DNA of 64,000 nucleotides from Candidatus Zixiibacteriota bacterium. Lineage in GTDB: Bacteria > Electryoneota > B3-LCP. A program made the position numbers and the translations under genes. Below are positions 8,230 to 44,193 of this stretch, one piece after another. Position 1 is the stretch's first letter; each line of letters begins with the position of its first letter. Below the pieces are notes generated by a model, which saw nothing but the letters and a program-made list of their open reading frames with translations, had not been told where the DNA came from and ran no database searches. The DNA lies in contig QZKQ01000131.1 in assembly GCA_003599535.1 (NCBI GenBank), positions 22,612 through 86,611 of the forward strand, written 5' to 3'.

Positions 8230-8325
8230 CACACCCAACTACTTGCAATTTTGATTGACATTCGACCCTCTTAATGCTAAATTAAGGCAGTCGAATCGTG
8301 TCAAGAAGTGCAACGAAAAGCCCAT

Positions 8326-9414
8326 ATGCGTGTTTCTTTTAGAATTATCCGGATAACTCTTGGTATTTTCCTTCTGGTGGCCGTGGTGCTGCTGGCCCGC
8401 AAGGTACATCAGTCGGTGTACGGCCCCAATGCTCAGCGGGCCGCGGGCGAATACGTGGAACTGTCCATCACACCGGGAATGCCTCTGCCCCTGGTAGCCC
8501 GGCAACTGGAGGAGAAGGGCGCCGTCAACCGCGCCCGGGATTTCGTGTTCGCCGCCCGCCTGCTGCGGCTGGATCACCGCATCCAGGCCGGGGAATACGT
8601 TCTTCCCTTCGGCCTCTCCAATGCCGACCTCCTGCGCCGCCTGATCCGCGCCGGCGCCAACGCCTCCCTGGTCACCATACCCGAAGGCTACAACACTCGC
8701 GAGATTGCCGCCCTGCTGGAAGAAAAAGTGGGGATGGATTCGGCCGCCTTCATGCAGGCGGTGTACGACAGCGCCCTGCTGGCGCGGCTGGGAATTGAGG
8801 CCCCTTCCTTCGAAGGGTTCCTGTTCCCCGAAAGCTACAGCCTGCACCGGGGGATGGAGCCGGCCTGGGTCATCCAGAAGATGGTCCAGCTCTTCTTCCA
8901 GGCGTTCGATTCCACCGACCGCGCCCGGACCGATTCCCTGGGGCTGTCCCTGACGGAAGCCGTCACCCTGGCGTCCATCATCGAAGGGGAGATGTTAGAC
9001 CCGGAAGAGGCGGGGCTGATTTCGGCGGTGTACCACAACCGCCTGAAGAAGAAAATGCTGTTGCAGGCCGATCCTACCATCCAGTACGTGGTGGGAGACA
9101 AGCCCAGGCGGCTAGTCCGCAGCGACCTGGCGGTGGAATCGCCCTACAACACGTACCGCTATCCCGGGCTGCCGCCCGGCCCAGTGTGCAACCCCGGGAA
9201 ACTGTCGCTCCAAGCCGCCCTGCATCCGGCTCCGGCGCCGTACATCTTCATGGTATCGCAGGGCAACGGCCGGCATGCCTTCACCACCAATCTCGACGAC
9301 CACCTTCAGGCCAAGGTCAAGCTGGACAGCGTGCGCCGGGTCCTGGAGGAAGCCCGGGCGCAGGCCGCCCTGGAAGATTCCACCCGGACAGATACGACGC
9401 AGACGAAAGAATGA
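8326..9414 (+). CDS. mltG: Endolytic murein transglycosylase MltG (YceG-like)
   Basis: N-terminal TM, then YceG-family motifs (AGEY, IPEGYNTREIA). An alternative GTG start exists at 8308. Confidence 0.8.
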   Translation: MRVSFRIIRITLGIFLLVAVVLLARKVHQSVYGPNAQRAAGEYVELSITPGMPLPLVARQLEEKGAVNRARDFVFAARLLRLDHRIQAGEYVLPFGLSNADLLRRLIRAGANASLVTIPEGYNTREIAALLEEKVGMDSAAFMQAVYDSALLARLGIEAPSFEGFLFPESYSLHRGMEPAWVIQKMVQLFFQAFDSTDRARTDSLGLSLTEAVTLASIIEGEMLDPEEAGLISAVYHNRLKKKMLLQADPTIQYVVGDKPRRLVRSDLAVESPYNTYRYPGLPPGPVCNPGKLSLQAALHPAPAPYIFMVSQGNGRHAFTTNLDDHLQAKVKLDSVRRVLEEARAQAALEDSTRTDTTQTKE

Positions 9415-9418
9415 CGCA

Positions 9419-11620
9419 GTGAATCTGAACGATTTAAGCCCCGCCCAGAAGAAGGCGGTCGAAGAATACCGGGGCCCGGTGCTGGTGCTGGCCGGCGCGG
9501 GCAGCGGCAAGACCCGCGTGATCACCTACCGCATCGCTTTCCTGCTGCGCGAGCGCCTGGCGCGTCCCGGGGAAATCCTGGCCGTGACCTTCACCAACAA
9601 GGCCGCCGCGGAAATGCGCGAGCGGGTCAGCCAGCTCCTGGAAGGCCACACCGGGGATCTCTACCTGGGCACCTTCCACGCCTTCGGGGCGCGTTTCCTG
9701 CGCCGGCACGCGGAAGCCTTCGGCCGCACCTCCCGGTTTACCATCTACGACGATGATGACCAGAACCGCCTGGTTCGCGGCCTGCTGAAGCAGTCCGCCG
9801 ACGACAAGGACAAGGGTTGGTTGCAAGCCCTGCGCCATTTCGTGGCCGAGGTGAAGGGAAACTTGAAGAGTCCGGAATTAGCCGCCGCCCAGGCGGAGAA
9901 ATCCCGGGGTAATTACCTGCTCGACCTCTACTATCAATACGAAGCGGCGCTGAAAAACAATAATGCCTTCGATTTCGACGACCTGATCAGCCTGCCCTGC
10001 CATCTGCTGCAGAACGACGCCGACCTGCTGGCCCGCTACCGCGACCGGTTCCGCTACGTGCTGATTGACGAATTTCAGGACACCAACATCCCCCAGGGGG
10101 AGATGGCCCGCCTGCTGGCCGCGCCTTCGGGCAACATCACCGCGGTGGGCGACGACGATCAGTCCATCTACGGCTGGCGGGGCGCCTGCATCGGCAACAT
10201 TCTGCAATTCGAGCACGATTACCAGGGCGTGCGGGTCTTCCGCCTGGAACAGAACTACCGCTCCACCCAGGCCATCCTGGAGACCGCCTACCAGGTGATC
10301 AAGAACAACGCCGCCCGCCACGCCAAGAAGCTCTGGACCGCCCGCCAGGGAGGCGACAAGCCGCGTGTCCTGCCGGCCAATGACGACCGGGAAGAAGCCC
10401 GCATTATCGTGGAGAAAATTCAGGAACTTTTACTCTCCGGACAGTATAATCAGGGAGACGTGGTCATTCTCTACCGCACCAACGCTCAATCCCGGTCCCT
10501 GGAAGACGCCCTGCGCCAGAACGCCCTCCCCTACATGATCGTAGGGGGCTTGCGTTTCTATGAGCGGCGGGAGATCAAGGATTTCCTGGCCTACCTGCGG
10601 CTGCTGGTCAACCCCAGCGACGTCCTGGGCCTGCAGCGGGTCATCAACCTGCCGGCACGGGGCATCGGGGACAAGACCGTCCAGCGCTTGCGGGCCCACG
10701 CCGCACAGCGGGAAATTTCCCTGTTCGAGGCCGTCCTGAATGCCGCCGAGATAGAGGATTTAAGCCCCCGCACCGCCGCCAAGGTCGCCGAATTCGGAAA
10801 GTGGATCGTGGACCTGCAGGCCTTCGCCGGTAAGGAAAGCCTGCACCGGGTGGGGGAGAGGCTGATGCACGAATCCGGCCTCCTGCCCCACTACCAGAAA
10901 GAGGACGCGGCAGAATTCAAGAACCGCCAGGAAAACTTAAGCGAATTGCTGAACGCCCTGCGCGAGTACAGCTTCGAAAGCCGCAATACCGGCCTGGACG
11001 ACCTGGACAGCTTTCTGCAGGAAGTCGCGCTGGTGACCGACGTGGACCGCTGGGATGCCGACCGGAAGGCCGTCACCCTGATGACCCTGCACGCGGCCAA
11101 GGGGCTGGAATTCCCCGTGGTGTTCATGTCCGGCCTGGAGGACGGGTTGTTTCCCTTGCAGAACAGTTCCGGCAGCCTGGATGAGATCGAGGAAGAACGG
11201 CGGCTGTTCTACGTGGGCGCCACCCGGGCCAAGGACCGCCTGTTCCTGACCTACGCCCGCCATCGCATGCGCTGGGGACAGGAGATCGCCTGGCAGCGGC
11301 CTTCCCGCTTCCTGAAAGAGATCCCCGAGGAGCTGCTGGATTACGAAAATGAGCGCGAAACGGCTCCGGCGGCCAACAGGACCGAAGGTCTGTTCCGTAG
11401 CAATAAACGGCGTGACTCTGTCGCGCCGCTGGTGAAACGTCCGCCCGCCACCGAAGACGCTTATCCCCTGGGTTCCCGCGTCCGTCACGCGCAGTTCGGC
11501 GAAGGCGTGGTCATTCACGCCGAAGGCCGCGACGAATCCCTCCGGCTCCTGGTCAATTTTGAATCGGCCGGCCAGAAGCTGCTTCTGGCCAAGTACGCCA
11601 AGCTGCAGAGAATTCCCTGA
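9419..11620 (+). CDS. pcrA: ATP-dependent DNA helicase, UvrD/PcrA family
   Basis: Helicase motifs GAGSGKT, DEFQDTN, VGDDDQSIY, QNYRST, LHAAKGLEF, GATRAKDRL. Probable GTG start at 9419. The ORF-track start at 9275 overlaps mltG and is rejected. Confidence 0.85.
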   Translation: MNLNDLSPAQKKAVEEYRGPVLVLAGAGSGKTRVITYRIAFLLRERLARPGEILAVTFTNKAAAEMRERVSQLLEGHTGDLYLGTFHAFGARFLRRHAEAFGRTSRFTIYDDDDQNRLVRGLLKQSADDKDKGWLQALRHFVAEVKGNLKSPELAAAQAEKSRGNYLLDLYYQYEAALKNNNAFDFDDLISLPCHLLQNDADLLARYRDRFRYVLIDEFQDTNIPQGEMARLLAAPSGNITAVGDDDQSIYGWRGACIGNILQFEHDYQGVRVFRLEQNYRSTQAILETAYQVIKNNAARHAKKLWTARQGGDKPRVLPANDDREEARIIVEKIQELLLSGQYNQGDVVILYRTNAQSRSLEDALRQNALPYMIVGGLRFYERREIKDFLAYLRLLVNPSDVLGLQRVINLPARGIGDKTVQRLRAHAAQREISLFEAVLNAAEIEDLSPRTAAKVAEFGKWIVDLQAFAGKESLHRVGERLMHESGLLPHYQKEDAAEFKNRQENLSELLNALREYSFESRNTGLDDLDSFLQEVALVTDVDRWDADRKAVTLMTLHAAKGLEFPVVFMSGLEDGLFPLQNSSGSLDEIEEERRLFYVGATRAKDRLFLTYARHRMRWGQEIAWQRPSRFLKEIPEELLDYENERETAPAANRTEGLFRSNKRRDSVAPLVKRPPATEDAYPLGSRVRHAQFGEGVVIHAEGRDESLRLLVNFESAGQKLLLAKYAKLQRIP

Positions 11621-11621
11621 C

Positions 11622-12458
11622 ATGACCGAATTGTCTCAACTGGTGAGCGCCGCTCTGCGCGAAGACGTGGGCGAGGCCGATTGGACCACCCGGCTGCTGC
11701 TTGACCCGCAGACCGCGGGGACCGCCAAAGTCATGGCCAAGGCCCCGGGAATCCTGTCGGGACTGGAACCTTTCGTTGAAGTTTTCCGCCAGGTTGACGA
11801 TCAGATAGTGGTCCGGCCGCAATGCCGCGAAGGCGACCGCCTGTCCCCCGGCGAGGTCGCCGTCTACGTGGAAGGGCGGCTGGGCGGGATCATGACGGGC
11901 GAGCGCACCGCCTTGAACTTTCTGCAGCGGCTCTCCGGCATCGCCACCCTGACGGCGCGGTTCGTGGAAGCGGTGGAGGGGACCCGGGCGGTCATCCTGG
12001 ACACCCGCAAGACCACGCCCGGCCTGCGCCTCCTGGAGAAGGCGGCCGTGCGGCACGGCGGCGGATCCAACCACCGCCTGGGCTTGTACGACATGATATT
12101 GATTAAGGACAACCACGTGGCCGCCGCCGGGGGTGTCACGGCGGCCCTGCAGCAGACCCGCCAGGCCCTGGCCCACGCCGGGCGCAACCTGCCCATCGAG
12201 GTGGAAGTCCAGAACCTGGAGCAGTTGGACGAAGCCCTGGCGCTGCGCCCTGATCGCATTCTGTTGGATAATTTTTCCCTGGACCAGATCCGCCGCGCGG
12301 TGGAAACCGCGGCCGGCCGGGTGCCCCTGGAAGTTTCCGGCGGCGTCACCCTGGAGGGCGTGCGCGAGGTGGCGCACTGCGGCGTGGATTACATTTCCGT
12401 GGGCGCCCTGACCCATTCGGCGCCCGCCCTGGATCTCAGCCTCCTGTTGATGGCATGA
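11622..12458 (+). CDS. nadC: Nicotinate-nucleotide pyrophosphorylase (carboxylating) / quinolinate phosphoribosyltransferase
   Basis: Conserved QPRTase motifs (GERTALNFLQRLSGIAT, ILDTRKTTPGLR, DMILIKDNH). ATG lies 1 nt after the helicase stop. Confidence 0.85.
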   Translation: MTELSQLVSAALREDVGEADWTTRLLLDPQTAGTAKVMAKAPGILSGLEPFVEVFRQVDDQIVVRPQCREGDRLSPGEVAVYVEGRLGGIMTGERTALNFLQRLSGIATLTARFVEAVEGTRAVILDTRKTTPGLRLLEKAAVRHGGGSNHRLGLYDMILIKDNHVAAAGGVTAALQQTRQALAHAGRNLPIEVEVQNLEQLDEALALRPDRILLDNFSLDQIRRAVETAAGRVPLEVSGGVTLEGVREVAHCGVDYISVGALTHSAPALDLSLLLMA

Positions 12459-15061
12459 ATCGCGGCGATATCAAAATATTGGTCGGTGATACCGACCAGA
12501 AGTCTCTTCAGCGCCTGCGCAAGATCCTGGCGGAAGAGTCGTACGGGGTGTGGACTTCCGACGACGCGGGGGAACTGCTGCGCATCTACGAGGCCGGCAC
12601 GTTCGATCTGCTGATCCTGGACGTGCGCCTCTACGCCCAATTGCGCCGGCAGCGCTTCCCCGTCGAACCCCAGGCGGAACACTTCCCCCTGATCATCGTG
12701 ATGACCGGCGAAGAGGATTTTCCCGCCACTGTGGAGGCCATCAAGGAAGGGGCCATTGACTTCCTGGAACGGCCCATCCGCGTCAAACGGCTCCTGATAA
12801 CCATCCGCAACGCGCTGCAGCACCGCCACAAGCTCCAGGAGATGCGCCGCGATCAACAGGAGCTGGCCTTCCTGAAGGAGCTCTACGAGCGCATCATCAA
12901 CGGCATTGATTACGGCATCGTGGTGCTCGATTCCAACCTGCGCATCGAATCCATCAACGAATATCTGAAGCGCAAGCAGCGCAAGGACACGTCCCGCTCA
13001 CTGGGCCGACCCTGCTATCGCTTCTTCTACGACCGCCGCACCATCTGCAATGACTGCCGCATCAAGGAGGTGTTCGAGACGGGGGCGCCGGTCCGGTATA
13101 AGCTGGTGCAAAAGACCGCCTGGGGCACGCAGCACTACATGGAGGTCGAGGCTTTCCCGCTGTTCGACCCCGAAGGCCGGGTCAACCGGGTGGTGCAACT
13201 GATCAAGGACGTCACCGAGCGGGTGAAGCTCGAACAGGAACTACGGGAGAAGAAGGATTACCTGGAAAACCTGCTGTCGCACGCTCCGGTGGGCATTTTT
13301 TCCACGGATTCCCGGGGATTCATTCAGGCGGCCAATCCGGCTTTCGCCCAGATCATCGGCGCCCGGGAATCGTCCGATGCCCTGGGTTTGAATGTGCTGG
13401 AATTCGAGGATTTCCGCAAGAACGGACTGGATCAGAAGTTCCGGCTGGTGCTGGAGAAGGGCGAACCGCAGGAAGTCGAGCGCCTGGCCTGCGAATCCAG
13501 TTGGGGACACAGCAGCATTTGTTCTCTCCGTTGCGTACCACTACGAGGGGAAGGCGGCGCCATCGCCGGATTGATCGCCACGGTCGAGGACGTCACCACC
13601 AAGCACCAGTTGGAGGAGAGTTACCAGAAGCGCATCGCCGAACTGACCAACTTCAAGGAAGTAGGCGAGCTCCTGCAAAGCACGGTGGATCTGGCGGACA
13701 TCTACGCCATCACCCTGATCGGCGTGACCGCGGGCATGGGCCTGGGATTCAACCGCGCCTTTCTGTTGCGTTACGACCGCGGCAGCAACACCCTGATCGG
13801 CGAAACCGCCATCGGGCCGTCGGACGCCGCGGAAGCCGGCCGCATCTGGTCGGAACTGTACGAGAAGAAGCTCTCCCTGAAGGAAATCTTCGACAATTAC
13901 AAGGAAACTCTGGACGACAAGGACGTCAAGGTGCGGGAGGTCGTCAAGCGGCTGCGCATCCCCTTGACATGGGAAGAGGGCCTGTTCCAGGAAGTCCTGT
14001 TCCACAACCTGCCGCAGAACGTGACCGGCGCCTCCCAGGGCCGCTACGCCGACCAGAAACTGATCTCCAAGACCATCGGCAGCGACGCGTTCGCCGTGGT
14101 GCCATTGATCAGCCGGGGCAAGGCTGAAGGCGTCATTATCGCCGACAACCTGATTACCGGAAAGGAGATCACCGACGAGGACGTCAAGCGGCTCTCCATC
14201 ATCACCAACCAGGCCGGCACGGTAATCGAAAACACCCGGCTGCTGCGCAACCTGGAAGAGAAGGTCGAAGCGCTGCGCCTGGCTTACCTGGACTTGAAAG
14301 AGAACCGAGACCGGCTGCTGCGCGCCGAACGGCTGTCCGCCGTGGGTGAAGTGGCGGCCATGGTGGCCCACGAGATCCGCAACCCCTTGACCTCCATCGG
14401 CGGGTTCGCCCGCGCGGTGATGCGGGACATGGGAAAGGCCGAGAAGGCCGAGACGAATCGCCGGTTCCTTAACATCATCCTGGAAGAGGTCAAACGGCTG
14501 GAGCGGATCGTCACCGAGATCCTGGGGTTCATCCGCCCGCTGACCATGAATTTTACCCCCACCAACCTGCACGAGGTCATTGACCAGACCTTCAGCATGA
14601 TGGCGGGAGAGATAGACGAGACCAAGATCATCGTGACCCGGGACTACCAGCCCAATCTACCCGCGGTCATGGCGGACGCCGACCAGATTCGCCAGGTGCT
14701 GCTGAACCTGCTGCGCAACGCCCTGCATGCCATGCATAACGAAGGGATGCTGTCGGTCATCACCGAGACGGTGGAGGACAATATCCGCATCTACATCGCC
14801 GACACCGGGGAAGGCATCCGCGCCGAGCATCTGGACAAGCTATTCAACGCCTTTTTTACCACCAAGGCCAGCGGGTCGGGTCTGGGCCTGACGATCTGCA
14901 TGCAGATCATCCGCGGGCATGGGGGAACCATCGAAGTGGACAGCCGGGAAGGCGAAGGATCCACTTTCATCGTTACGCTTCCGGTAAGACGGGAGGAGGT
15001 TGATCATGAAGAAGCGAATTCTCGTGGTGGACGACGAGAAGAACCTGCGAATTCTGTATGA
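12455..15061 (+). CDS. Multi-sensor hybrid histidine kinase: degenerate receiver, two PAS, GAF, HisKA, HATPase_c
   Basis: N-terminal CheY-like fold with the conserved Lys replaced (FLERP). PAS-like segments. GAF-like region. H-box HEIRNPLTSI. N/G1/G2 boxes LLNLLRNALHAM ... DTGEGI ... GSGLGL. Confidence 0.8.
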   Translation: MNRGDIKILVGDTDQKSLQRLRKILAEESYGVWTSDDAGELLRIYEAGTFDLLILDVRLYAQLRRQRFPVEPQAEHFPLIIVMTGEEDFPATVEAIKEGAIDFLERPIRVKRLLITIRNALQHRHKLQEMRRDQQELAFLKELYERIINGIDYGIVVLDSNLRIESINEYLKRKQRKDTSRSLGRPCYRFFYDRRTICNDCRIKEVFETGAPVRYKLVQKTAWGTQHYMEVEAFPLFDPEGRVNRVVQLIKDVTERVKLEQELREKKDYLENLLSHAPVGIFSTDSRGFIQAANPAFAQIIGARESSDALGLNVLEFEDFRKNGLDQKFRLVLEKGEPQEVERLACESSWGHSSICSLRCVPLRGEGGAIAGLIATVEDVTTKHQLEESYQKRIAELTNFKEVGELLQSTVDLADIYAITLIGVTAGMGLGFNRAFLLRYDRGSNTLIGETAIGPSDAAEAGRIWSELYEKKLSLKEIFDNYKETLDDKDVKVREVVKRLRIPLTWEEGLFQEVLFHNLPQNVTGASQGRYADQKLISKTIGSDAFAVVPLISRGKAEGVIIADNLITGKEITDEDVKRLSIITNQAGTVIENTRLLRNLEEKVEALRLAYLDLKENRDRLLRAERLSAVGEVAAMVAHEIRNPLTSIGGFARAVMRDMGKAEKAETNRRFLNIILEEVKRLERIVTEILGFIRPLTMNFTPTNLHEVIDQTFSMMAGEIDETKIIVTRDYQPNLPAVMADADQIRQVLLNLLRNALHAMHNEGMLSVITETVEDNIRIYIADTGEGIRAEHLDKLFNAFFTTKASGSGLGLTICMQIIRGHGGTIEVDSREGEGSTFIVTLPVRREEVDHEEANSRGGRREEPANSV

Positions 15062-15359
15062 GGAGGAACTGAAGGCGGAAGGATACGGCGTGGACGTGGC
15101 CGATTCCGCCGACATGGCTTTTCGCCTCCTGGATGAGAATACCTATGACGTCATCGTTCTCGATATCCAGATGCCGGGAATGAACGGCCTGGAAGCCATG
15201 GGACATATCCTGCACAAGAACCGCAAGCAGACCATTATCTTGAATACTGCCTATTCCCAGTTCAAGGATGACTTCGAATCCTGGTCCGCGGATGCCTACG
15301 TGGTGAAGTCCGGCGATCTGACGGAACTGAAGGATAAGATCCGGGAGTTGGTGGGCTGA
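15006..15359 (+). CDS. Single-domain response regulator (CheY-like receiver)
   Basis: ILVVDDE, VIVLDIQMPGMNG, VKS. 118 aa. GGAGGAGG sits 6 nt upstream of the ATG. Overlaps the kinase 3' end. The stop overlaps the next gene's start (TGATG). Confidence 0.8.
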   Translation: MKKRILVVDDEKNLRILYEEELKAEGYGVDVADSADMAFRLLDENTYDVIVLDIQMPGMNGLEAMGHILHKNRKQTIILNTAYSQFKDDFESWSADAYVVKSGDLTELKDKIRELVG

Positions 15360-17503
15360 TGTCCATGGCCGGCAAGCTCAATGTCGCGTTTCTGTGGCAC
15401 ATGCATCAACCCGATTACCGGGATCCCGGCACCGGTCAACCCCTCATGCCCTGGGTGCGGTTGCACGGCCTTAAAGGTTACACCGACATGCTCGAGGCTG
15501 TCCGCCGCTTTCCCGAGATCCGGGTGACCTTCAATTTCGCTCCGGTGCTGGTCAAGCAGTTGGTGGCCCTGACCCTGGAGGGGCAAACCGACCACTACTG
15601 GGATCTGACCGCCAAACCGGGCGAAGAGTTGGAAATCGGCGAGCGCAAGCACATCCTGCGACACTTCTTCTCGGCCAACTGGGAAACCATGGTGCTGAAG
15701 TATCCCCGCTACCGGGATCTGTTGCACCGCCGCGGCCGGGACGTGTCGGAAGCGGAACTGGAGCGTGCGGCCGGGCGGTTTTCCGACCAGGATCTGCGCG
15801 ACCTGCAGGTGTGGTTCAACTTGGCCTGGTTCGGATGGGCCGCCGAAGAGCGCCACCCGCAGATCCGGGAATGGAAGCGCAAGGGGAGGAATTTCAGCGA
15901 AGAAGATAAGCTGGCCGTCCTCCAGATGCAAAAGGAGGTACTGTCCCGCATCCTGCCCGACTACCGGGCCGCGTGGGAACAGGAGGCCATCGAAATCTCC
16001 GCCTCGCCCTTCTACCATCCCATCCTGCCGCTCCTGGTGGACAGCGGCGCGGCGCGCATTTGCCAGCCGCGGGACGACATGCCAGACAAGCCGTTCATGC
16101 GTCCGGACGATGCCCGGGAGCAGTTGCGCCGGGCGATGGAATACACCAAAAAACATTTGGGCCGGGCTCCGGAAGGGCTGTGGCCCAGCGAGGGATCGGT
16201 AAGCCCCAAGGCGGCCGAATTCGCCGGGGAAGCCGGCTTCCGCTGGATGGCCACCGACGAGGCCGTGCTCATGGCCACCCTGGGGCGCGGAAAGCGGGAA
16301 GAGGTGATCTACCAGGGCTACCGGACTTCTCCCAGCGGGCCGGATATCGTCTTCCGCGACCGCTACCTGTCGGATGCCATCGGCTTCCGCTATGCCCGCA
16401 ACACCGCCAAGCAGGCGGTGGACGACCTGCTGGGCCATCTACAGAACATCGCGTCGCACAAGGCGCATCCGGAAAATCATGTGGCTGCGGTCATCCTGGA
16501 CGGCGAGAACGCCTGGGAATACTTCTCCGACGGCGGCCGCCTATTCTTCGAAGAGCTGTACGGCCGGTTGAGCAAGCATCCGCGTTTACGCACGGCCACG
16601 GTTGGCTCCTACCTGAAAGCGCATCCGCCCGAAACCGTGCTGCCGCCCCTGTTCCCGGCCTCCTGGATCCGCTGCTCGTTTCGCATCTGGATCGGCGATC
16701 CCATCAAGAATGTGGCCTGGAACCGGCTGCGGGAGTGCGGCGAGATGATAGACGAGTACCTGAAGAAGCCCCAGAAGCGGGAAGCGGCTCTGCGGGCGCG
16801 CGAATGGCTGCTGGTGGCCGAGGGCAGCGACTGGTTCTGGTGGTACGGCGAACCCAACAATTCCTCCTTCGATGCGGAATTCGACCAGCTCTTCCGCCTG
16901 AACCTGATGCAGGCCTACAAGGAGCTGGGCGTGCCGGTGCCGCCGACCCTGGAACACCCCATAGACGTCAGCGAGATGCCCGAGGAGGTGCCGCTGTTCC
17001 CTATGGAGCCGATCATTGACGGGAAGGAGACCACTTTCTACGAGTGGGTCGGGGCGCGGGTGATAAAGGCCAGCGACCTGTCCGGGGCCATGACCTTCAC
17101 CACCCGGCTGTTCGACCGAGTCTGTTACGGGCTCTCCCCGTCGCACTTTTTCCTGCGGCTGGACCCTTCCGAGCACCTGCGCGACCGCCAGGAGCTGACC
17201 CTGGTCATCCGCTTCATCGGGGAAGGCCAGCCGCGAGTCGAGATGGGGAACCTGGAGGCGCCGGAACACCTGGAGGCGGTGTGGATCCGGGGCGAAACCC
17301 GGCACCCGCTGAAAGCCGCGGCTATCGGCCGAATCATTGAACTGGCCGTTCCCTTCGACCAGTTGCCTCGAGAATTGAATGAGATCCACTTCGCCGTGCT
17401 CCTGAAGCGGGGCGACTTCGAAATAGAACGCTGGCCCCGGCTGGGGACCTACGCCTGCCCCTGGCCTACGCCGGAGTATCTTACCAGAAACTGGGTTATT
17501 TAA
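15359..17503 (+). CDS. Glycoside hydrolase family 57 protein (alpha-amylase / 4-alpha-glucanotransferase type)
   Basis: N-terminal GH57 signature AFLWHMHQP with a Trp-rich catalytic region (WFWWYGEP). 714 aa. Confidence 0.75.
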   Translation: MSMAGKLNVAFLWHMHQPDYRDPGTGQPLMPWVRLHGLKGYTDMLEAVRRFPEIRVTFNFAPVLVKQLVALTLEGQTDHYWDLTAKPGEELEIGERKHILRHFFSANWETMVLKYPRYRDLLHRRGRDVSEAELERAAGRFSDQDLRDLQVWFNLAWFGWAAEERHPQIREWKRKGRNFSEEDKLAVLQMQKEVLSRILPDYRAAWEQEAIEISASPFYHPILPLLVDSGAARICQPRDDMPDKPFMRPDDAREQLRRAMEYTKKHLGRAPEGLWPSEGSVSPKAAEFAGEAGFRWMATDEAVLMATLGRGKREEVIYQGYRTSPSGPDIVFRDRYLSDAIGFRYARNTAKQAVDDLLGHLQNIASHKAHPENHVAAVILDGENAWEYFSDGGRLFFEELYGRLSKHPRLRTATVGSYLKAHPPETVLPPLFPASWIRCSFRIWIGDPIKNVAWNRLRECGEMIDEYLKKPQKREAALRAREWLLVAEGSDWFWWYGEPNNSSFDAEFDQLFRLNLMQAYKELGVPVPPTLEHPIDVSEMPEEVPLFPMEPIIDGKETTFYEWVGARVIKASDLSGAMTFTTRLFDRVCYGLSPSHFFLRLDPSEHLRDRQELTLVIRFIGEGQPRVEMGNLEAPEHLEAVWIRGETRHPLKAAAIGRIIELAVPFDQLPRELNEIHFAVLLKRGDFEIERWPRLGTYACPWPTPEYLTRNWVI

Positions 17504-17517
17504 CGAGAGGTATCGCC

Positions 17518-19308
17518 ATGCCGAATATTGGAGCTTTTAGCCTGGTGCTGCACAGCCACCTTCCGTACGTCATTTCCCACGGGAAATGGCCCCACGGGAT
17601 GGATTGGCTCAACGAAGCCGCGTCAGAAACCTACCTGCCGCTGCTGCGATCCTTCGATCAGTTGGTGGCGGAAGGGATATCCCCCAAGGTGACCATTGAC
17701 ATCACCCCGGTGCTGTGCGAAATGCTGGCGGATCCGGTGTTCAAGGAGGAGTTCATCGCTTACTTGAACATCAAAATCGAAGCCGCCCGCCTGGACGTGC
17801 ACTGGTTCGAGAGCAACCCGCCCGAAGGTGACCAGGAAGCACAGGAACACATGATCCGCCTGGCCCGGAATTGGGAGCGCTTCTACATGGACTTGCTGGA
17901 CGACTTCCGCGGCCGCTACAACCAGGATATCGTGGGCGCATTCCGCCGGCTGCAGGACGATGGCCACCTGGAGGTGATCACCTGCGCGGCCACACACGGC
18001 TATCTGCCACTGCTCTATGAAGACGCCTGCATTGACGCCCAGATCCGCATGGCCGTGGAAAATTACAAGCGGCACTTTGGCCGGCCCCCCCGGGGCATTT
18101 GGCTGCCGGAGAGCGCCTACCGGCCCATGCGGGAATGGAGTTCGCCCCTGGGCAACGACGAGCCCCGGGCGCGCCGCGGCCTGGAGGAATTTCTGGACCG
18201 CCACGGTCTGCGCTACTTCTACGTGGATTCCCACCTGATCGCCGGGGGCAAGGCCATGGGCGTCTACCTGGAACGCTTCGAGGCTCTGAAGAAGTACTGG
18301 CACGAGTTCTCCCGGGGCTACAGCGAACCGGCGGACGAATTCAAGCGCAGCCCCTACCAGACCTACCTGGTGCGGTCGCGCGACGAGTTCATGGGTCGGG
18401 TATCAGCCTTCGTGCGCGATCCTAAAACCGGGCTGCAGGTGTGGTCCGGGGAACACGGATATCCCGGCGATGGTAATTATCTCGATTTCCACCGCAAGCA
18501 CTGGCCCGGCGGTTTGCGCTATTGGCGGGTCACCTCCACCAAGGTGGGCCTGGGCGAAAAGGAAGTGTACAATCCCGACATCGTGGAATCCCGAGTGCAG
18601 GAAAACGCCGGCCACTTCAAGGAGATGATCCGGCAGATCCTGCTGCATGAAGGCCAGGAGGCCGAGGGTTTACCCATCGTCTGCGCCCCCTACGACACCG
18701 AGCTGTTCGGCCACTGGTGGTTCGAAGGCCCGCAATGGATTTACCATGTGCTGAAGTGGGTCAACCAGGATCCGGAACTGGAGGCTATGACCGGAAGTGA
18801 GTACCTGGAGCAGGTGAGCACCCACCGGGTGGTGTCTCTGCCGGAAGGGTCCTGGGGGGAAGGCGGCTTCCACCACATCTGGTTCAACAAGGATACCGAG
18901 TGGACCTGGGAGCTGATTTACCCGGCCGAACGCAAGATGGTGGAAGCGGCCCGCCAGTGGAGCCGACATTCCGACGGCCGGGTCCAGGAAGCGTTGCGCC
19001 AGTTGGCCGTGGAGCTGTTGCTGCTGGAAAGTTCCGATTGGCAGTTCCTGATCTCTACCGTGGCCGCGCGCGATTACGCCGAAACCCGCGTGATCAAGCA
19101 CAACTACGACTTCTGGCGCATCTATGAGCTGCTGGAGAAGCTGACTAACGGGGAGGAGCCGGACCAGGAAGCCTGGGCTCATTACGCCCTGGTGCGGCAG
19201 CGGGATACGCTCTTCCCGCAGGTGGATCCTTCCTGGTGGACCGGGGCGGATTTATCCCCCGATTTACAAAAAGCGTTACCCTTGACCACAGAAACAGTGG
19301 AGTCCTAA
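17518..19308 (+). CDS. GH57-family 1,4-alpha-glucan branching enzyme
   Basis: LVLHSHLPYV N-terminus and overall GH57 layout, as in Thermus/Thermococcus GH57 branching enzymes. 596 aa. Confidence 0.7.
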   Translation: MPNIGAFSLVLHSHLPYVISHGKWPHGMDWLNEAASETYLPLLRSFDQLVAEGISPKVTIDITPVLCEMLADPVFKEEFIAYLNIKIEAARLDVHWFESNPPEGDQEAQEHMIRLARNWERFYMDLLDDFRGRYNQDIVGAFRRLQDDGHLEVITCAATHGYLPLLYEDACIDAQIRMAVENYKRHFGRPPRGIWLPESAYRPMREWSSPLGNDEPRARRGLEEFLDRHGLRYFYVDSHLIAGGKAMGVYLERFEALKKYWHEFSRGYSEPADEFKRSPYQTYLVRSRDEFMGRVSAFVRDPKTGLQVWSGEHGYPGDGNYLDFHRKHWPGGLRYWRVTSTKVGLGEKEVYNPDIVESRVQENAGHFKEMIRQILLHEGQEAEGLPIVCAPYDTELFGHWWFEGPQWIYHVLKWVNQDPELEAMTGSEYLEQVSTHRVVSLPEGSWGEGGFHHIWFNKDTEWTWELIYPAERKMVEAARQWSRHSDGRVQEALRQLAVELLLLESSDWQFLISTVAARDYAETRVIKHNYDFWRIYELLEKLTNGEEPDQEAWAHYALVRQRDTLFPQVDPSWWTGADLSPDLQKALPLTTETVES

Positions 19309-20339
19309 TGCCAGAGCTACGTCACGATCCCATTCAGAAACGTTGGGTCATCATCGCCACCGAACGGGGCCGGCGTCCGTCCGATTTCGTCAAGTCCGAA
19401 CCGCCGCCCATCAGTGGCTTCTGTCCCTTCGACGAAGGCAACGAGGATAAAACCCCCCCGGAAGTCCTGGCCTTCCGGCGCCCCGGTACGGCGCCCGATA
19501 CACCCGGCTGGGACGTGCGGGTGGTATCCAATAAATTCCCCGCCCTGCGCATCGAAGGCGACCTGGATCGTGCCGCCGATGGCATCTACGACAAAATGAA
19601 CGGCATCGGCGCACACGAGGTGGTGATCGAAACGCCGCAGCACGACCTGAACCTGGCCGACCAACCGGTGGAACAATTCACCAACATCATGCTGGCGGCC
19701 CAGATGCGCCTGACTGACCTGATGCGGGATCTGCGCTTCCGCTACGTGCTGATCTTCCGGAATCACGGCACCACCGCCGGCGCTTCGCTGGCACACCCGC
19801 ACACCCAGATCATTGCCACGCCGGTGACTCCGCGGACGGTTTCCATGGAGCTGGATTCGGCCCGGGAACACTACCATGCCAAGGAACGCTGCCTGTTCTG
19901 CGACATCATCCGCCAGGAGATGAAGCAGGGCATTCGCGTGATCAGCGAAGTGGATGGGATGATCTCCTTCACGCCGTTCGCTTCCCGGTTCCCCTTTGAA
20001 GTGTTCGTCATGCCCATCCAACATTCGCACGATTTTGCCGAATTAAATCAAGATGGCCTGACCGCGCTGTCCAAATGCCTGAAGGATACCCTGCTGCGCC
20101 TGAAACTGGCACTGGATGATCCTCCGTACAACTTCATGCTGCACACCGCCCCCAACACCAGGACGGCGGCCCGTCGTCCGGGGCATTGGCTGACGTTGCC
20201 CTTCGATTACCACTGGCATTTCGAAATCACTCCGCGGTTGGTCAAAGTCGCAGGCTTCGAATGGGGCACGGGCTTCTATATTAACCCCACGCCCCCCGAA
20301 GACGCCGCCCGGTACCTGCGCGAGATTGTCATTCCCTGA
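19308..20339 (+). CDS. galT: Galactose-1-phosphate uridylyltransferase family (HIT superfamily) nucleotidyltransferase; possibly a glucose-1-P/ADP-glucose-specific homolog
   Basis: FRNHGTTAGASLAHPHTQ (HxHxQ nucleotidyl-transfer motif with T in place of G). CPF motif. Start overlaps the previous stop (TAATG). Confidence 0.7.
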   Translation: MPELRHDPIQKRWVIIATERGRRPSDFVKSEPPPISGFCPFDEGNEDKTPPEVLAFRRPGTAPDTPGWDVRVVSNKFPALRIEGDLDRAADGIYDKMNGIGAHEVVIETPQHDLNLADQPVEQFTNIMLAAQMRLTDLMRDLRFRYVLIFRNHGTTAGASLAHPHTQIIATPVTPRTVSMELDSAREHYHAKERCLFCDIIRQEMKQGIRVISEVDGMISFTPFASRFPFEVFVMPIQHSHDFAELNQDGLTALSKCLKDTLLRLKLALDDPPYNFMLHTAPNTRTAARRPGHWLTLPFDYHWHFEITPRLVKVAGFEWGTGFYINPTPPEDAARYLREIVIP

Positions 20340-20355
20340 AACGAGAGAGGGTATT

Positions 20356-20658
20356 ATGTGCACCTGCAGTGTGACGATTATTCCCGTGGGCAAGGGTACT
20401 TCCATGTCTGACGTATTGTCCAAGTCCATCCAGGTCCTGGATGAATTTGAAGACGTGAAGCACCAGATCACGCCCATGTCCACCCAACTGGAAGGCCCCA
20501 CCGAGCGCATCATGCAAGCGATTCAAGCCATGCATGAAGCCGCGTTCGAGAGCGGAGTGGACCGCGTGTACACCACCATCGTGCTGGACGAGCGCCGCGA
20601 CAAGGATCTGTCGCTGGAGGAGAGGGTGGAGCACGTGAAGCAGAAAGTACCGGCTTGA
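20356..20658 (+). CDS. MTH1187/YkoF-family (DUF77) small protein, putative thiamine/ligand-binding
   Basis: MCTCSVTIIPVGKG ... ~100 aa ferredoxin-like fold family. Confidence 0.55.
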   Translation: MCTCSVTIIPVGKGTSMSDVLSKSIQVLDEFEDVKHQITPMSTQLEGPTERIMQAIQAMHEAAFESGVDRVYTTIVLDERRDKDLSLEERVEHVKQKVPA

Positions 20659-20689
20659 TTTCCGGAATCAACCGGCAGGTGGGTGGATT

Positions 20690-22048
20690 TTGGCTAAACC
20701 GGAAAAATTGATCGTGGTCGGGGGCAACGCCGCCGGCATGGCGGCCGCCACCGCCGCGCGACGGCGTCGCCCCGATCTCGATATTACTCTCGTGGAACAA
20801 TCCGGCCGCATTGCGACGGCCAATTGTTCCGCCCCCGCGTACCTGGACGGCCGCATCGTCCAGGTCAGCGCCCTCGAGAACCTCACGCCGCAAAACGCCT
20901 CCGAGCAGTACTCCCTGAACGTCCTGACCGGCCACCAGGCCCTGGAGATCCAGCCCCGAGCGCATCGCTTGGCCGTGCGCAACGCGGCCACCGGTCAGAC
21001 CTTCGATCTTCCTTACGACCGCTTGATTCTGTCCACCGGCGCCCGCCCCATCCGGCCCTCCGTGCCCAACGTTGGCGCGCGGGGCATCCTGGCGCTGCGC
21101 AGCCTGGACGACGCCGAGGAGATCCGCCGCTGGCTGGAAATCCGCCGCCCCTCCACCTTCGTGGTCATCGGTACCGGTACCATCGCCCAGGTGTGCGCCG
21201 AGGCCCTGAAATCCCACGGCCTGGAGATCCACTTCATCGGCCGGGAAGAGGGCTTGATGGAGGACCTGGAGAAGCCCATCTCCGAGTGTCTTATGCAGGC
21301 GCTGCTGGATGCCGGTATCCACGTACATTTCGCGGAGAACATCACCGGCTTTCAAGTGTCGCTTGAAAACGAAGTGGAGGCCGTGGAATTTCCCGGGCAA
21401 ACCCTGCGCTGCCAAGGGGTGCTGATCGCCATGGGGGTGGCGCCCAACACCGATCTGGCTCGCAGCGCCGGATTGCGTCTGGGGGTGCAGGAAACCTTGC
21501 AGGTGGATCGGCGCCTGGGGACTTCGCGGGCGGGAATCTACGCCTGCGGGGATTGCACGCATTCTTTTTTCCGCACCACCAACAAGCCGTTCTACTGGCC
21601 GCTGGCCACGACCGCCAGCCGGCAGGGGCGCCAGGCGGGGGAAATCGCCGCCGGGGCGCGGGGAGAAGATCCCGGTACGCTGGCCACGCGCCTGTGGACC
21701 TGCCTGGGCCTGCAGGTGGCCCGAGTGGGGCTGTCGTCGAAGCTGGCGCGGGACATGGGTGTGAAGCACCGCGTGACTCACGCCAGCGCCGCGTCCAAGC
21801 CGGGCATGTATGGCGGCCATAGCATGGACCTGGCGCTGATCAGCGATCCCGAAACCGGGCGGCTGCTCGGCGCCCAAATCATCGGCAAGGAAGGCGTTCA
21901 CGCGCGCCTGTGCGCGCTGAGCGCGGCAATTTCCGGTAAACTGACGCTGAAGGAGGTGGAAAACCTGGATCTGGGATATTCACCGGAACTGGCCGCCCTG
22001 TGGGATCCAGTGCAGATCGCCGGCCGCCTGGGGAGGAAGCGCCCTTGA
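20690..22048 (+). CDS. FAD-dependent pyridine nucleotide-disulfide oxidoreductase (NADH oxidase / CoA-disulfide reductase family)
   Basis: FAD-binding IVVGGNAAGMAAA. Redox Cys in ATANCSAPAY. NAD-binding VVIGTGTIA. C-terminal dimerisation domain. TTG start is assumed. Confidence 0.75.
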   Translation: MAKPEKLIVVGGNAAGMAAATAARRRRPDLDITLVEQSGRIATANCSAPAYLDGRIVQVSALENLTPQNASEQYSLNVLTGHQALEIQPRAHRLAVRNAATGQTFDLPYDRLILSTGARPIRPSVPNVGARGILALRSLDDAEEIRRWLEIRRPSTFVVIGTGTIAQVCAEALKSHGLEIHFIGREEGLMEDLEKPISECLMQALLDAGIHVHFAENITGFQVSLENEVEAVEFPGQTLRCQGVLIAMGVAPNTDLARSAGLRLGVQETLQVDRRLGTSRAGIYACGDCTHSFFRTTNKPFYWPLATTASRQGRQAGEIAAGARGEDPGTLATRLWTCLGLQVARVGLSSKLARDMGVKHRVTHASAASKPGMYGGHSMDLALISDPETGRLLGAQIIGKEGVHARLCALSAAISGKLTLKEVENLDLGYSPELAALWDPVQIAGRLGRKRP

Positions 22049-22145
22049 GAAGCATCTTCTTTTTGGATGCATAACTTTACATAATATATCTTATGCGACA
22101 TTGCGCGTCCAAGCGCCTGATCCAGCGTTTACGGCCAAATCCACG

Positions 22146-22184
22146 TAAAAACGGCGGAAGAGCTCACGGGGCTCCTTCGCCGTT
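22146..22184 (-). terminator. Rho-independent terminator on the minus strand (distal)
   Basis: Minus-strand AACGGCGAAGGAGCCCCGUGAGCUCUUCCGCCGUU followed by UUUUUACGUGG. Confidence 0.55.
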
Positions 22185-22460
22185 ATGGTACCCTCTACCT
22201 GACCCGCCGCGCAGACCGCCATGAGTTCCCTTGCCCATCCCGGGCAAAGCCTCTGCTGGACGGGATCGTGGTGCAGGGGCAAAGCATTTGACGGGATGAG
22301 ACCTCCACGGCCCGACCGAGCCGCCGAACCCTGCGAAGATCGCTACCGCAAAGCGGCCGGGCAAATGCTTCGTTCTGGATCGGGAGCGGCAGAATAACCC
22401 TGTCCCCTCGCTCAGTGACCCCTTCGGGGATGGCGGGATGGCCCTCCGAACCGACAACCA
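22185..22460 (-). ncRNA. Candidate structured non-coding RNA (~280 nt) between two minus-strand terminators; identity unknown
   Basis: 475-bp gap between convergent genes with no plausible ORF. Bracketed by two minus-strand intrinsic terminators. Dense local hairpins (CCCCGAAGGGG, GCGAUCUUCGC) and internal direct repeats (GACGGGAU x2, GGGCAAAGC x2-3). Confidence 0.3.
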
Positions 22461-22495
22461 TAAAGAAGGCGGAAGCGCCTCGCAGCGCCTCCGCC
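22461..22495 (-). terminator. Rho-independent terminator of the zinc-ribbon membrane protein gene
   Basis: Minus-strand GGCGGAGGCGCUGCGAGGCGCUUCCGCC followed by UUCUUUAUGG, right after the stop codon. Confidence 0.65.
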
Positions 22496-22524
22496 TCTGT
22501 CATGAGTCAGTTCTCAGGGTAAGT

Positions 22525-23301
22525 CTACTTTTGCGGCCACAACTGCGGAACCCAACTAAACAGCCCGTGGAAAAGCTCGAGGATCTCATTCAGCGTGGGG
22601 TTGCTCTTGATCATCCACCACAGGCCGGGGACGTGCATCAGGCCGTAAAACACCCCTGCCGCCACCACGATGGCGATCAGGTAGGCTCCGCTGGCTTTGC
22701 GCCATTCCCGTAGCCGCTTCACCCCCAGGTAGTGGAAATACGTCTGCACCTTGGCGTCCAGAAACTCGCGGTCGTCCACGCGGAAGGCCTGGATACTCCA
22801 GAAGGCCGCCGTGAACAGGGACATGATCAGGGCATAGGCCGGCATGAGTTCCAGGAAGTTCAGCGGTCCCACCACCACCACGGCGGTCAGGAAGCCGGCC
22901 GCCAGGCTTCGGTTGGTGCCCCGGCGGAATTTGCGGATGATCAGCCGGTCGACCCAGTACGGGCCGGGATAGCCGGGGCGGATCTCGGTGTTGATGTTGC
23001 GCACGAGCTGCAGGTGCGCAGCGATGTACAGGATCATCAGGGTGGCGACGAACTTGTGCTGATCCAGGGTCTGGCCCAGAATGCCCTTCCCCAGCAGGTT
23101 CTCCAGGACCGCGAGAAACAGCAGCAAAACGACAAAGGTGAGGAGCCAGAAGAGGAAACCGCGATCGTGTGTGAATCCGGCGACGCGTTGCGACCATTCG
23201 TACAACAGCGAGCGTTTCAGGTCGAGCGGTTCGCCGCAGGAGGGACAGGTTTTGCCCTTGTAGTCGCCCGCGATGTCGCCTTTGCAATTTGGGCACTTCA
23301 T
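22525..23301 (-). CDS. Hypothetical membrane protein with N-terminal zinc-ribbon (CxxC ... CxxC) and about 6 TM helices
   Basis: MKCPNCKGDIAGDYKGKTCPSCGEPL followed by multiple hydrophobic segments. No recognised family. Confidence 0.5.
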   Translation of the reverse strand: MKCPNCKGDIAGDYKGKTCPSCGEPLDLKRSLLYEWSQRVAGFTHDRGFLFWLLTFVVLLLFLAVLENLLGKGILGQTLDQHKFVATLMILYIAAHLQLVRNINTEIRPGYPGPYWVDRLIIRKFRRGTNRSLAAGFLTAVVVVGPLNFLELMPAYALIMSLFTAAFWSIQAFRVDDREFLDAKVQTYFHYLGVKRLREWRKASGAYLIAIVVAAGVFYGLMHVPGLWWMIKSNPTLNEILELFHGLFSWVPQLWPQK

Positions 23302-23468: not shown

Positions 23469-23490
23469 TGCGTTTATCGCCTGATAAGGA

Positions 23491-33103: not shown

Positions 33104-33107
33104 AACC

Positions 33108-44173: not shown

Positions 44174-44193
44174 GCAGTGAAGGTTATTCCAGG

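Follow-up and report, generated by a model that had tools for sequence, protein, structure and literature searches.

In the textbook account of bacterial glycogen metabolism (GlgC, GlgA, GlgB, GlgX and GlgP), control is exerted allosterically at GlgC and by global regulators. Two other described systems matter for what follows. The first is the sensor kinase ThkA with the receiver TrrA, a pair for which, to our knowledge, no physiological role has been established. The 116-residue receiver in the PDB entries 3A0R, 3A10 and 3A0U is a Thermotoga maritima protein; it is TrrA, reportedly crystallised with ThkA by Yamada et al. in 2009 (locus tags TM1359/TM1360; structures also 3A0T). The second is the plant protein At5g18200, which is reported to be an ADP-glucose phosphorylase and not a galactose-1-phosphate uridylyltransferase (GalT) (PMC6329318; bioRxiv 10.64898/2026.09.13.751320). 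Here we describe a bacterial locus in which relatives of both are encoded next to alpha-glucan enzymes. It lies in a stretch of 64,000 nucleotides, called the window below, from contig QZKQ01000131.1 of a Candidatus Zixiibacteriota bacterium. Its genome was assembled from a metagenome, and the GalT-like protein of the window has 100% identity with an NCBI entry from the same group.

With a confidence that is a little better than even, we read this locus as the form that a conserved and widespread gene cluster for glycogen turnover takes in Zixibacteria, with a dedicated ThkA/TrrA-type two-component system. The reading builds on what can be observed directly, that is, on gene order, on the domains, key residues and homologies of the products, and on linkage across phyla. 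The predicted products of the central genes are the following:

12455..15061, + strand: sensor histidine kinase, ThkA-related and soluble (Pfam domains; no transmembrane segment)
15006..15359, + strand: stand-alone receiver of the TrrA family (Pfam Response_reg only)
15359..17503, + strand: GH57 enzyme of the amylopullulanase (AaApu) type (Pfam Glyco_hydro_57; match to PDB 9JLQ/8ZYI)
17518..19308, + strand: GH57 1,4-alpha-glucan branching enzyme (Pfam Glyco_hydro_57 and BE_C)
19308..20339, + strand: GalT-like class I HIT nucleotidyltransferase of the At5g18200 type (GalP_UDP_transf N and C domains)
20356..20658, + strand: protein of the MTH1187/YkoF family, thiamine-binding fold (Thiamine_BP / TIGR00106)

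The gene order, overlaps and domain content that a first-pass annotation had described for this DNA are borne out by the DNA itself and by Pfam. All six open reading frames lie on the + strand where it had placed them, with the start of the MTH1187 gene moved to the ATG at 20356.

We asked which genes surround the GalT-like gene in related genomes. A scan that covered each species by one genome and was seeded on the GalT-like protein yielded 80 loci; another 80 related loci come from metagenomes. The former are labelled as Zixibacteria-like, Calditrichota, LCP-89, KSB1, Latescibacterota, Gemmatimonadota, Acidobacteriota, Myxococcota/"Deltaproteobacteria", Anaerolineae and Margulisbacteria/Saganbacteria. 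In 72 of these 80 loci another glycogen gene is found at most 10 kb from the GalT-like gene. The most frequent neighbour is an AaApu-like GH57 enzyme (53 loci), followed by GlgA (41), a GT5 glycogen synthase usually encoded directly downstream of the GalT-like gene, a GH57 4-alpha-glucanotransferase (20), a GH57 branching enzyme (19), GlgP (15) and GlgC (14). A few related loci bear GH13 enzymes beside the cluster.

The signalling genes take part in this linkage. A receiver that is 44-90% identical to the one in the window occurs in 25 of the 80 loci, and a homologous kinase in 17. Their position shifts between lineages. They are upstream of the GH57 genes in the lineage of the window (L002-L006, L081) and downstream of GlgA in Acidobacteriota, and in L007-L011 the receiver is directly upstream of GlgC and the kinase is absent. 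Many metagenome contigs have the receiver between GlgC and the GalT-like gene, and the intervening gene codes for a more divergent GAF- or PAS-kinase. Full-text literature searches found no publication on an association of the GalT-like protein, or of ThkA/TrrA, with glycogen.

We also see that the Acidobacteriota loci (L018, L022, L027, L028, L033, L046 and others) share the order GalT-like - GlgA - kinase - receiver, and that this is regularly followed by a gene of the beta-lactamase family (PF00144) and then by a DUF4147/MOFRL (glycerate-kinase-like) gene.

The GalT-like protein is closest to At5g18200 by score, by tree and by fold. Its bit score is 233 (E = 4e-68) with At5g18200, 140 (7e-40) with Pyrobaculum GalT and 72 (5e-19) with Escherichia coli GalT, and the match to human GALT is also far weaker than that to the plant protein. 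In a neighbour-joining tree it is the sister of At5g18200. It has the two domains PF01087 and PF02744 (N and C) of the two-half-barrel GalT fold, and its AlphaFold2 model (pLDDT 70.7) matches 1Z84, 6K5Z, 1HXQ and 5IN3 with E = 1e-18 to 1e-26, the best folds being 1Z84/2H39 (E = 2e-26, TM-score 0.73-0.79). The identities are 38.5% to At5g18200, 36.2% to Pyrobaculum GalT and 25.6% to E. coli GalT; since Pyrobaculum GalT is nearly as similar as the plant protein, the specificity for nucleotide and acceptor is not readable from homology.

One could see in this protein a genuine Leloir GalT that channels galactose to glucose-1-phosphate for glycogen. JGI and NCBI annotate most members of the family in this way (the source annotations read "UDPglucose--hexose-1-phosphate uridylyltransferase"), and Pyrobaculum GalT, 36% identical, is reported to be a GalT (bioRxiv 10.64898/2026.09.13.751320). 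The NCBIfam equivalogs PRK11720 and TIGR00209 do match, though under their cut-offs (126 versus 448 and 95.1 versus 102.1, respectively). On the other hand, GalK and GalM are encoded in none of the 160 related loci, genome and metagenome taken together, and nowhere in the window, and a GalE-like gene is present in only 3 of the 160. The constant neighbours are enzymes of ADP-glucose and alpha-glucans, the identity to E. coli GalT is low, and the closest characterised relative is the reported phosphorylase. We regard a Leloir role as very improbable. As the relatives show no Leloir context, the best supported reading is that of a nucleotide-sugar phosphorylase, as far as sequence and neighbourhood can indicate this. 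The first-pass annotation had made the same suggestion, and both lines of evidence, the relationship with At5g18200 and the glycogen genes as usual neighbours, speak for it.

HPHTQ spans H163-Q167 with the nucleophile H165 and aligns with H164/H166/Q168 of E. coli GalT; in an alignment of 21 sequences H163, H165 and Q167 are invariant and T166 is at least 90% conserved. The zinc-site positions are C39, D42, H112 and H163, so that the second Cys is replaced by Asp (CPFD) in the window protein. CPFC is found in 17 of the 21 aligned relatives and CPF(D/E) in the remaining 4, and the Asp could itself ligate zinc. The family is large and very strongly conserved, with more than 8000 homologs, 60-85% identity across phyla and a mean column identity of 71%. 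Both motifs had been listed earlier as deviations from GalT. They are present, and CPFD is indeed a minority variant, while HPHTQ is simply the consensus of the family; we rejected the idea that the two motifs mark a degenerate enzyme.

Some further features of this family are worth recording. It keeps E181, H279, H304 and E306, which align with the residues of the structural iron site of E. coli GalT (E182, H281, H296 and H298). At5g18200 is without the last two of the residues so aligned. Compared with the plant protein, the bacterial family has about 8-10 more residues inserted ahead of the (D/Y)HWH motif. Note that in most papers the phrase "ADP-glucose phosphorylase" stands for GlgC/AGPase.

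His165 would act as a covalent nucleotidyl carrier in the reaction ADP-glucose + Pi <-> ADP + glucose-1-phosphate, which would link the pools of activated glucose and of glucose-1-phosphate without ATP or pyrophosphate. For the plant enzyme, McCoy et al. in 2006 are said to have found an equilibrium that favours ADP + glucose-1-phosphate about 5- to 40-fold; it is not known to have an established physiological role. In the bacterial cluster the most likely direction would be the removal of ADP-glucose upon a switch from synthesis to breakdown. The reverse is conceivable as well: the protein might be biosynthetic, an ATP-independent ADP-glucose synthase that feeds GlgA and replaces or supplements GlgC in energy-limited anaerobes. 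In 41 of the 80 loci its gene directly adjoins that of GlgA, and frequently GlgP is encoded on the opposite flank (GH57-GlgP-GalT-like-GlgA); no GlgC is found in the cluster of the window lineage (L001-L006, L081). The reaction is also reversible in principle, because the phosphoanhydride bond is conserved. However, the equilibrium reported for the plant enzyme speaks against this role, and GlgC shares the cluster with the GalT-like gene in many other loci, hence there is no simple replacement, and we think that a biosynthetic role is unlikely.

The two GH57 enzymes complete the metabolic part. The first matches the amylopullulanase AaApu of Aquifex aeolicus (PDB 9JLQ/8ZYI) with E = 3e-73 over residues 6-519. 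Four of the five conserved sequence regions, which are defined for AaApu in PMC12106739, are kept (HMHQP, WPSEGS, DGENAW and LVAEGSDW) and the second is divergent. The catalytic dyad consists of the nucleophile E278 in WPSEGS and the acid/base D381 in DGENAW, and about 195 additional C-terminal residues carry no recognised domain. By this similarity the enzyme is amylopullulanase-like, and it may act on alpha-1,6 bonds as well. The first-pass annotation had proposed a glucanotransferase/amylase. The glucanotransferase does not hold: a 4-alpha-glucanotransferase of the Thermococcus litoralis type would have AmyA-A_glucT as its middle domain and AmyA-gluTrfs at its C terminus, and both are absent here. 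In 20 related clusters these domains sit in a separate GH57 gene.

The second enzyme has PF03065 and PF09210 (BE_C) and the motifs WLPESAY and YDTELFGHWW. Its matches among PDB sequences are 3N8T (E = 4e-130), 5WU7 (3e-123) and 1UFA (2e-115; 1UFA/3P0B about 1e-115). The NCBIfam branching-enzyme equivalogs reach E = 1e-152, yet their scores stay under lineage-specific cut-offs (509 versus 1000 and 476 versus 920). By these similarities we assign the gene at 17518-19308 to the GH57 branching enzymes. The AaApu-like enzyme would then trim or debranch alpha-1,4 and alpha-1,6 linkages, and the branching enzyme would make alpha-1,6 branches.

We searched the window with tblastn for the rest of the pathway (E < 0.01 for E. 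coli queries, E < 0.001 for queries from the cluster families) and were not able to find any homolog of GlgA, GlgC, GlgP, GlgX, GlgB, MalQ, GH13 or GH77 in its 64 kb. The first-pass annotation had called the module GH57-only, with GH57 in place of all GH13 functions; for the genome as a whole, of which these 64 kb are a part, this would be tentative at best. That GlgA and GlgC were not found in the window might mean that the product of the cluster, made or remodelled by its enzymes, is some alpha-glucan other than storage glycogen, such as a methylglucose-lipopolysaccharide-like polymer, a capsular oligoglucan or the precursor of a compatible solute. Pathways of this kind do include genes similar to GH57 branching enzymes, Rv3031 of mycobacteria being one. 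However, the branching enzyme of the window has the BE_C domain and reaches E = 1e-115 to 1e-130 with glycogen branching enzymes that have been characterised, the related clusters bear canonical GT5 GlgA, GlgC and GlgP, and the cluster contains no genes for methyltransferases, acyltransferases or export. Of all the explanations that we considered, this one appears to us the least likely, and we give it hardly any weight.

In the kinase, Pfam finds Response_reg at residues 8-117 (41 bits), PAS_4 at 153-257, PAS_9/PAS at 270-381, GAF at 507-591, HisKA at 631-692 with the phospho-accepting H639, and HATPase_c at 741-845. There is no transmembrane segment (the Kyte-Doolittle maximum over 19 residues is 1.51). 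The N-terminal receiver domain had been called degenerate. It has the phospho-acceptor D56 and the conserved Thr, and it differs in the change of Lys to Arg, which is seen in the window genome only (the orthologs keep Lys), and of DD to GD.D. From these residues we would call it atypical and not clearly degenerate. Among the sensor elements of the kinase family, an alignment of orthologs shows the strongest conservation for the GAF-like domain; against PDB sequences this domain gave weak generic matches only (3OOV, 4G3K). In the first PAS domain, at residues ~185-202, a Cys motif C-x12-C-x2-C is kept in all five full-length orthologs (the window and L003-L006), and it may be a metal or redox-sensing site.

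The stand-alone receiver has 117 residues and consists of PF00072 alone (residues 5-113), with no output domain. The phospho-acceptor pocket is complete (D9/D10, D53, T81 and K101), and D10, D53 and K101 are invariant in an alignment of 14 receivers. The family has the signature ILNTAYSxYxDDFxSWxADAYVVKSxDLxELK. Among PDB sequences 3A0R_B, 3A10 and 3A0U are the best matches (E = 5e-33, 116.8 bits), and the next receiver scores 58 bits. The close receiver homologs are all stand-alone proteins of 115-260 residues, the few longer ones being REC-PilZ proteins, double REC proteins or mis-called starts.

Since the linkage of the receiver with glycogen genes was seen in loci that had been selected by the GalT-like gene, we also looked at it in the reverse direction. 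A metagenome scan was seeded on the receiver alignment, and the resulting collection is independent of the GalT-like scan. Where the receiver is at least 50% identical, a glycogen gene is present in 25 of the 31 informative loci (here the GH13 pullulanase of locus L113 is counted in), and 4 of the 6 remaining loci have less than 300 nucleotides of sequence downstream of the receiver and carry little weight for that reason. Where the receiver is 45-50% identical, the corresponding number is 3 of 20. In 55 loci with at least 50% identity, the gene directly downstream of the receiver codes for GlgC in 22 cases, for the GalT-like protein in 8 and for a GH57 enzyme in 6. The linkage of receiver and glycogen genes is thus specific to one receiver orthogroup and survives rearrangement, which argues for a functional tie and not for mere compaction.

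The central genes belong to an array of 10 + strand genes at 8308-22048 (mltG-uvrD-nadC-kinase-receiver-GH57-branching enzyme-GalT-like-MTH1187-CoA-disulfide reductase-like) that is almost free of spacers. The other genes of the array and two candidate boundary elements are:

8255..8283, + strand: candidate sigma-70-type promoter, TTGACA-17-TAAATT with a TG extension (consensus match only)
8308..9414, + strand: MltG/YceG, first gene of the array (Pfam YceG, E = 1.7e-77; context)
9419..11620, + strand: UvrD/PcrA helicase (Pfam UvrD-helicase, UvrD_C and PcrA_UvrD_tudor; context)
11622..12458, + strand: NadC, quinolinate phosphoribosyltransferase (TIGR00078, 319 bits versus a cut-off of 198; context)
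20690..22048, + strand: flavoprotein similar to CoA-disulfide reductase / NADH oxidase, last gene of the array (Pfam Pyr_redox_2 and Pyr_redox_dim)
22466..22497, no strand assigned: GC-rich hairpin (stem of 14 bp) in the convergent intergenic region behind the array; its score is that of a terminator for the - strand

The gaps along the array are, in order, 4, 1, -4, -56, -1, 14, -1, 16 and 31 nucleotides. uvrD has a GTG start 4 nucleotides past mltG, and the stop of nadC overlaps the ATG of the kinase gene in ATGA. The receiver gene starts within the kinase gene: its ATG is at 15006, with GGAGG before it, and the overlap comprises the last 56 nucleotides of the kinase gene. The receiver stop and the GH57 start share TGATG (-1), the 14 nucleotides between the two GH57 genes carry the ribosome-binding site GAGAGG, and the stop of the branching-enzyme gene and the start of the GalT-like gene share TAATG (-1). 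For MTH1187 the best start is the ATG at 20356 (+16 nucleotides, with GAGAGGG upstream) and not the TTG at 20326; this is in line with the gap of 15-23 nucleotides in orthologous loci. None of the array products has a hydrophobic segment, and we consider them cytoplasmic for this reason.

The candidate promoter at 8255..8283 lies in the divergent intergenic region upstream of mltG; from 8000 to 23500 the + strand has no other match. The scan covered the sigma-70 consensus only and gave 3 sites in the region where 3.0 are expected by chance. With the same scan, whose counts are at chance level, no sigma-70-like promoter was found on the + strand inside 8300-22000, and no terminator was found there. 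The array is followed by a convergent non-coding stretch of 476 nucleotides (22049-22524) with several GC-rich hairpins. Rfam has no family match for this stretch or for the hairpin at 22466-22497, and Rfam and tRNA scans of the whole window gave no match. In summary, co-transcription of the array genes from a start upstream of mltG appears plausible from the layout; probably all of them would be read as one long transcript.

The entire gene order recurs in L003-L006 with 50-86% protein identity, it recurs from nadC onward in L081, and partial versions are found in L001 and L002; the arrangement is for this reason more than chance. We also see that the mltG-uvrD-nadC block is syntenic in a second, distant lineage (L007-L011 and L067; about 40-47% protein identity), with the mltG region itself syntenic in L007, L009, L011 and L067. 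It is therefore the whole neighbourhood that is old, and not the glycogen part alone.

MTH1187 (TIGR00106 with 89.4 bits versus a cut-off of 54.7; PF01910, E = 3e-26; PDB 1LXN, E = 7e-19) and the CoA-disulfide reductase-like protein (TIGR03385 with 304 bits, under the cut-off of 579) were considered as functional members of the cluster. We rejected this, since their genes accompany it in only 6 of the 80 GalT-like loci, all of them close relatives. Both are probably passengers.

Several of these observations weigh against our reading. Equally tight packing ties in nadC, uvrD, mltG and the oxidoreductase gene, and because it also covers such unrelated genes, overlap alone is no evidence of a functional link. 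The pathway is locally incomplete, with GlgA, GlgC and GlgP not found in the window. GlgC and the GalT-like protein co-occur in many clusters and would run a futile cycle if both were active together. The AlphaFold2 model of the GalT-like protein is only moderate, and Pyrobaculum GalT is nearly as close to it in identity as At5g18200. A search of 1.84 billion representative proteins found no receiver-enzyme fusions among the close receiver homologs. Finally, the pair also occurs in other surroundings. In the metagenome locus L115 it is beside flagellar rod genes, and Thermotoga maritima, Mesoaciditoga (M. lauensis) and Kosmotoga (L163, L165 and L166) have it without glycogen genes; the arrangement Mut7-C - ThkA - TrrA - IleRS is conserved in L163, L165 and L166. 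The glycogen association is therefore one of many phyla and not universal, and the ThkA/TrrA-type system may report a general physiological or metabolic state rather than glycogen specifically. Locus L113, with the order GH13 pullulanase - TrrA-like receiver - IleRS, bridges the glycogen and the Thermotogota contexts. T. maritima may also have a second galT beside glgA.

Some of these points would be expected if kinase and receiver were mere neighbours of the GH57 genes through compaction or inherited synteny and controlled something else, or a general state. The junctions at nadC, uvrD and mltG are as tight as the others, the upstream synteny is old too (L007-L011 and L067), the Thermotogota pairs adjoin ileS and the pair of L115 flagellar genes, and no output domain hints at what the receiver might act on. 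Against this, receiver and kinase stay with glycogen genes across phyla while their position shifts. The receiver remains directly upstream of GlgC in L007-L011, where the kinase is absent, and the receiver-seeded search shows the sharp difference between at least 50% identity and just below that is given above. We consider mere neighbourhood distinctly unlikely. In the first-pass annotation the direct translational coupling of a sensor kinase to storage-polysaccharide enzymes had been called uncommon; for this family that is misleading, as the link recurs widely in relatives and the coupling in the window extends to housekeeping genes.

If the locus is a glycogen-turnover cluster with its own ThkA/TrrA-type system, as we suggest, its signalling part could work as follows. 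The kinase would respond to a signal in the cytoplasm, detected by its PAS domains and chiefly by the conserved GAF-like domain, autophosphorylate at H639 and pass the phosphoryl group to D53 of the receiver. Because the receiver has no DNA-binding or enzymatic domain, we infer that it acts by protein-protein contact; with its alpha4-beta5-alpha5 face, which is highly conserved, it would bind one or more glycogen enzymes encoded directly downstream, which would be the GH57 enzyme here and GlgC or the GalT-like protein elsewhere. A wider hypothesis, which we put forward as tentative and rather doubtful, is that ThkA/TrrA outside Thermotogota is a dedicated non-transcriptional regulator of glycogen flux whose receiver, phosphorylated when the GAF-like domain senses a metabolite, directly binds GlgC, the GalT-like protein or GH57, and that the GalT-like protein is a bacterial ADP-glucose phosphorylase that forms a regulated ADP-glucose/glucose-1-phosphate cycle with GlgC and GlgA.

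All parts of the locus come from known families, and their combination is apparently an undescribed, conserved variant of the bacterial glycogen cluster. Beyond the textbook set, two conserved components are suggested by the window together with some 100 related loci, which come from about ten phyla, most of them uncultured: the GalT-like protein and the ThkA/TrrA-type pair. Our proposal, if true, would assign a role to an orphan signalling pair whose structure is well studied, and correct a systematic mis-annotation of thousands of proteins that are now labelled galactose-1-phosphate uridylyltransferase. How soil and sediment bacteria (such as Zixibacteria, KSB1, Latescibacterota and Acidobacteriota) store carbon would have to be modelled with two additions, phosphorolysis of ADP-glucose and signalling that acts after translation. 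The regulated ADP-glucose/glucose-1-phosphate cycle of the wider, doubtful hypothesis would be a core step that has so far gone unrecognised in the glycogen metabolism of prokaryotes.

Other parts of the window contain features of their own. Five large secreted proteins on the - strand (5444-8095, 23491-25176, 25309-27759, 27931-30327 and 37155-38456) share the tail LxxYxLE...KMVLLK. They are an S8 subtilase, three paralogous InhA-like proteins with MAM domains and one more protein, and in three of the five Pfam calls the C-terminal sorting domain of the type IX secretion system (Por_Secre_tail). The shared sorting tail implies such a secretion system in this Zixibacteria genome. Between ~30000 and 36800 the GC content is 0.50-0.57, compared with 0.60-0.65 elsewhere. 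This low-GC island, possibly a horizontally acquired island for glycan modification, has tandem paralogs of PMT_2-type glycosyltransferases (31508-33103 and 33057-34649) and two NAD-dependent epimerases/dehydratases (34834-35823 and 35835-36788). The latter are the sole GalE-like matches of the window, 15 kb from the GalT-like gene and unrelated to it.

At 41169-47154 on the - strand there are three multihaem c-type cytochromes (MtrC/MtrF-like, cytochrome c7/c3 and NrfB-like) and a cytochrome b561-like membrane subunit (43214-44389), a cluster that looks like a module for respiration or extracellular electron transfer. A putative fusion gene, one open reading frame at 39566-40936 on the + strand, encodes a complete TatD-family hydrolase domain (residues 3-252) followed by a radical SAM domain (273-439). 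The - strand gene at 2732-4285 codes for a response regulator whose output domain is PglZ (alkaline-phosphatase-like). Finally, the stretch 51904-59558, all on the - strand, codes for the selenocysteine synthase SelA, for two radical SAM proteins that are paralogs and bind B12 by their domain content (53524-55011 and 55141-56589), and for a pair of M16 peptidases (56738-59558).

How does the locus compare with the described systems? The E. coli glgBXCAP operon likewise groups branching, debranching and nucleotide-sugar genes, and its GlgC, GlgA and GlgP are found in loci related to ours. The glgC-glgA-glgP set by which a classical glycogen operon is recognised is not in the 64-kb window and is present in clusters of other phyla. 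In the window cluster GH57 enzymes replace the GH13 enzymes GlgB and GlgX, and its core includes a HIT-type GalT-like enzyme and a two-component system whose receiver has no output domain.

Among the enzymes, the branching enzyme resembles TK1436 (3N8T), TTHA1902 (1UFA/3P0B) and the Pyrococcus horikoshii enzyme (5WU7) over its full length with GH57 and BE_C, and differs in that it comes from a mesophilic uncultured phylum and scores under the NCBIfam cut-offs. With AaApu the first GH57 enzyme shares HMHQP, WP(P/S)E(A/G)S, DGEN(C/A)W, LVAEGSDW and the catalytic Glu/Asp, whereas the second conserved region of AaApu, GKGSV, is not kept and the ~195 C-terminal residues are extra. The Leloir GalT enzymes (E. 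coli 1HXP and human 5IN3) have in common with the GalT-like protein the class I GalT/HIT fold, HxHxQ and the zinc-site positions, but the identity of 25.6% (to the E. coli enzyme), another C-terminal sugar loop and the lack of galK, galM and galE partners set them apart. The homology with At5g18200 (1Z84 and 2H39) is full-length and includes HxHxQ with the nucleophilic second His, the zinc-site His residues and the C-terminal sugar loop GFE-GTG-YINP. Here the differences are HSHSQ in the plant protein against HPHTQ, Asp for the second zinc Cys in the window protein, and the bacterial context with glycogen enzymes.

ThkA/TrrA is the closest described signalling system. The receiver of the window is of the same stand-alone type and length as TrrA and roughly 55% identical to it, and the two have a conserved alpha4-beta5-alpha5 sequence and the motif TAYSxYxxDxxSWxADxYVVKS in common. 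In both systems a soluble kinase is encoded directly upstream of the receiver, and T. maritima ThkA is 39% identical to the window kinase in the kinase core (E = 9e-41) and 26% identical in the GAF-like domain (residues 403-603, E = 3e-16). The domain order is different: REC-PAS-PAS-GAF-DHp-CA in the window, whereas ThkA has a PAS domain between the GAF-like and DHp domains and no N-terminal receiver. The context differs as well, as the pair of Thermotogota is found beside IleRS, and the pair described here, like those of many other phyla, beside the genes of glycogen metabolism.

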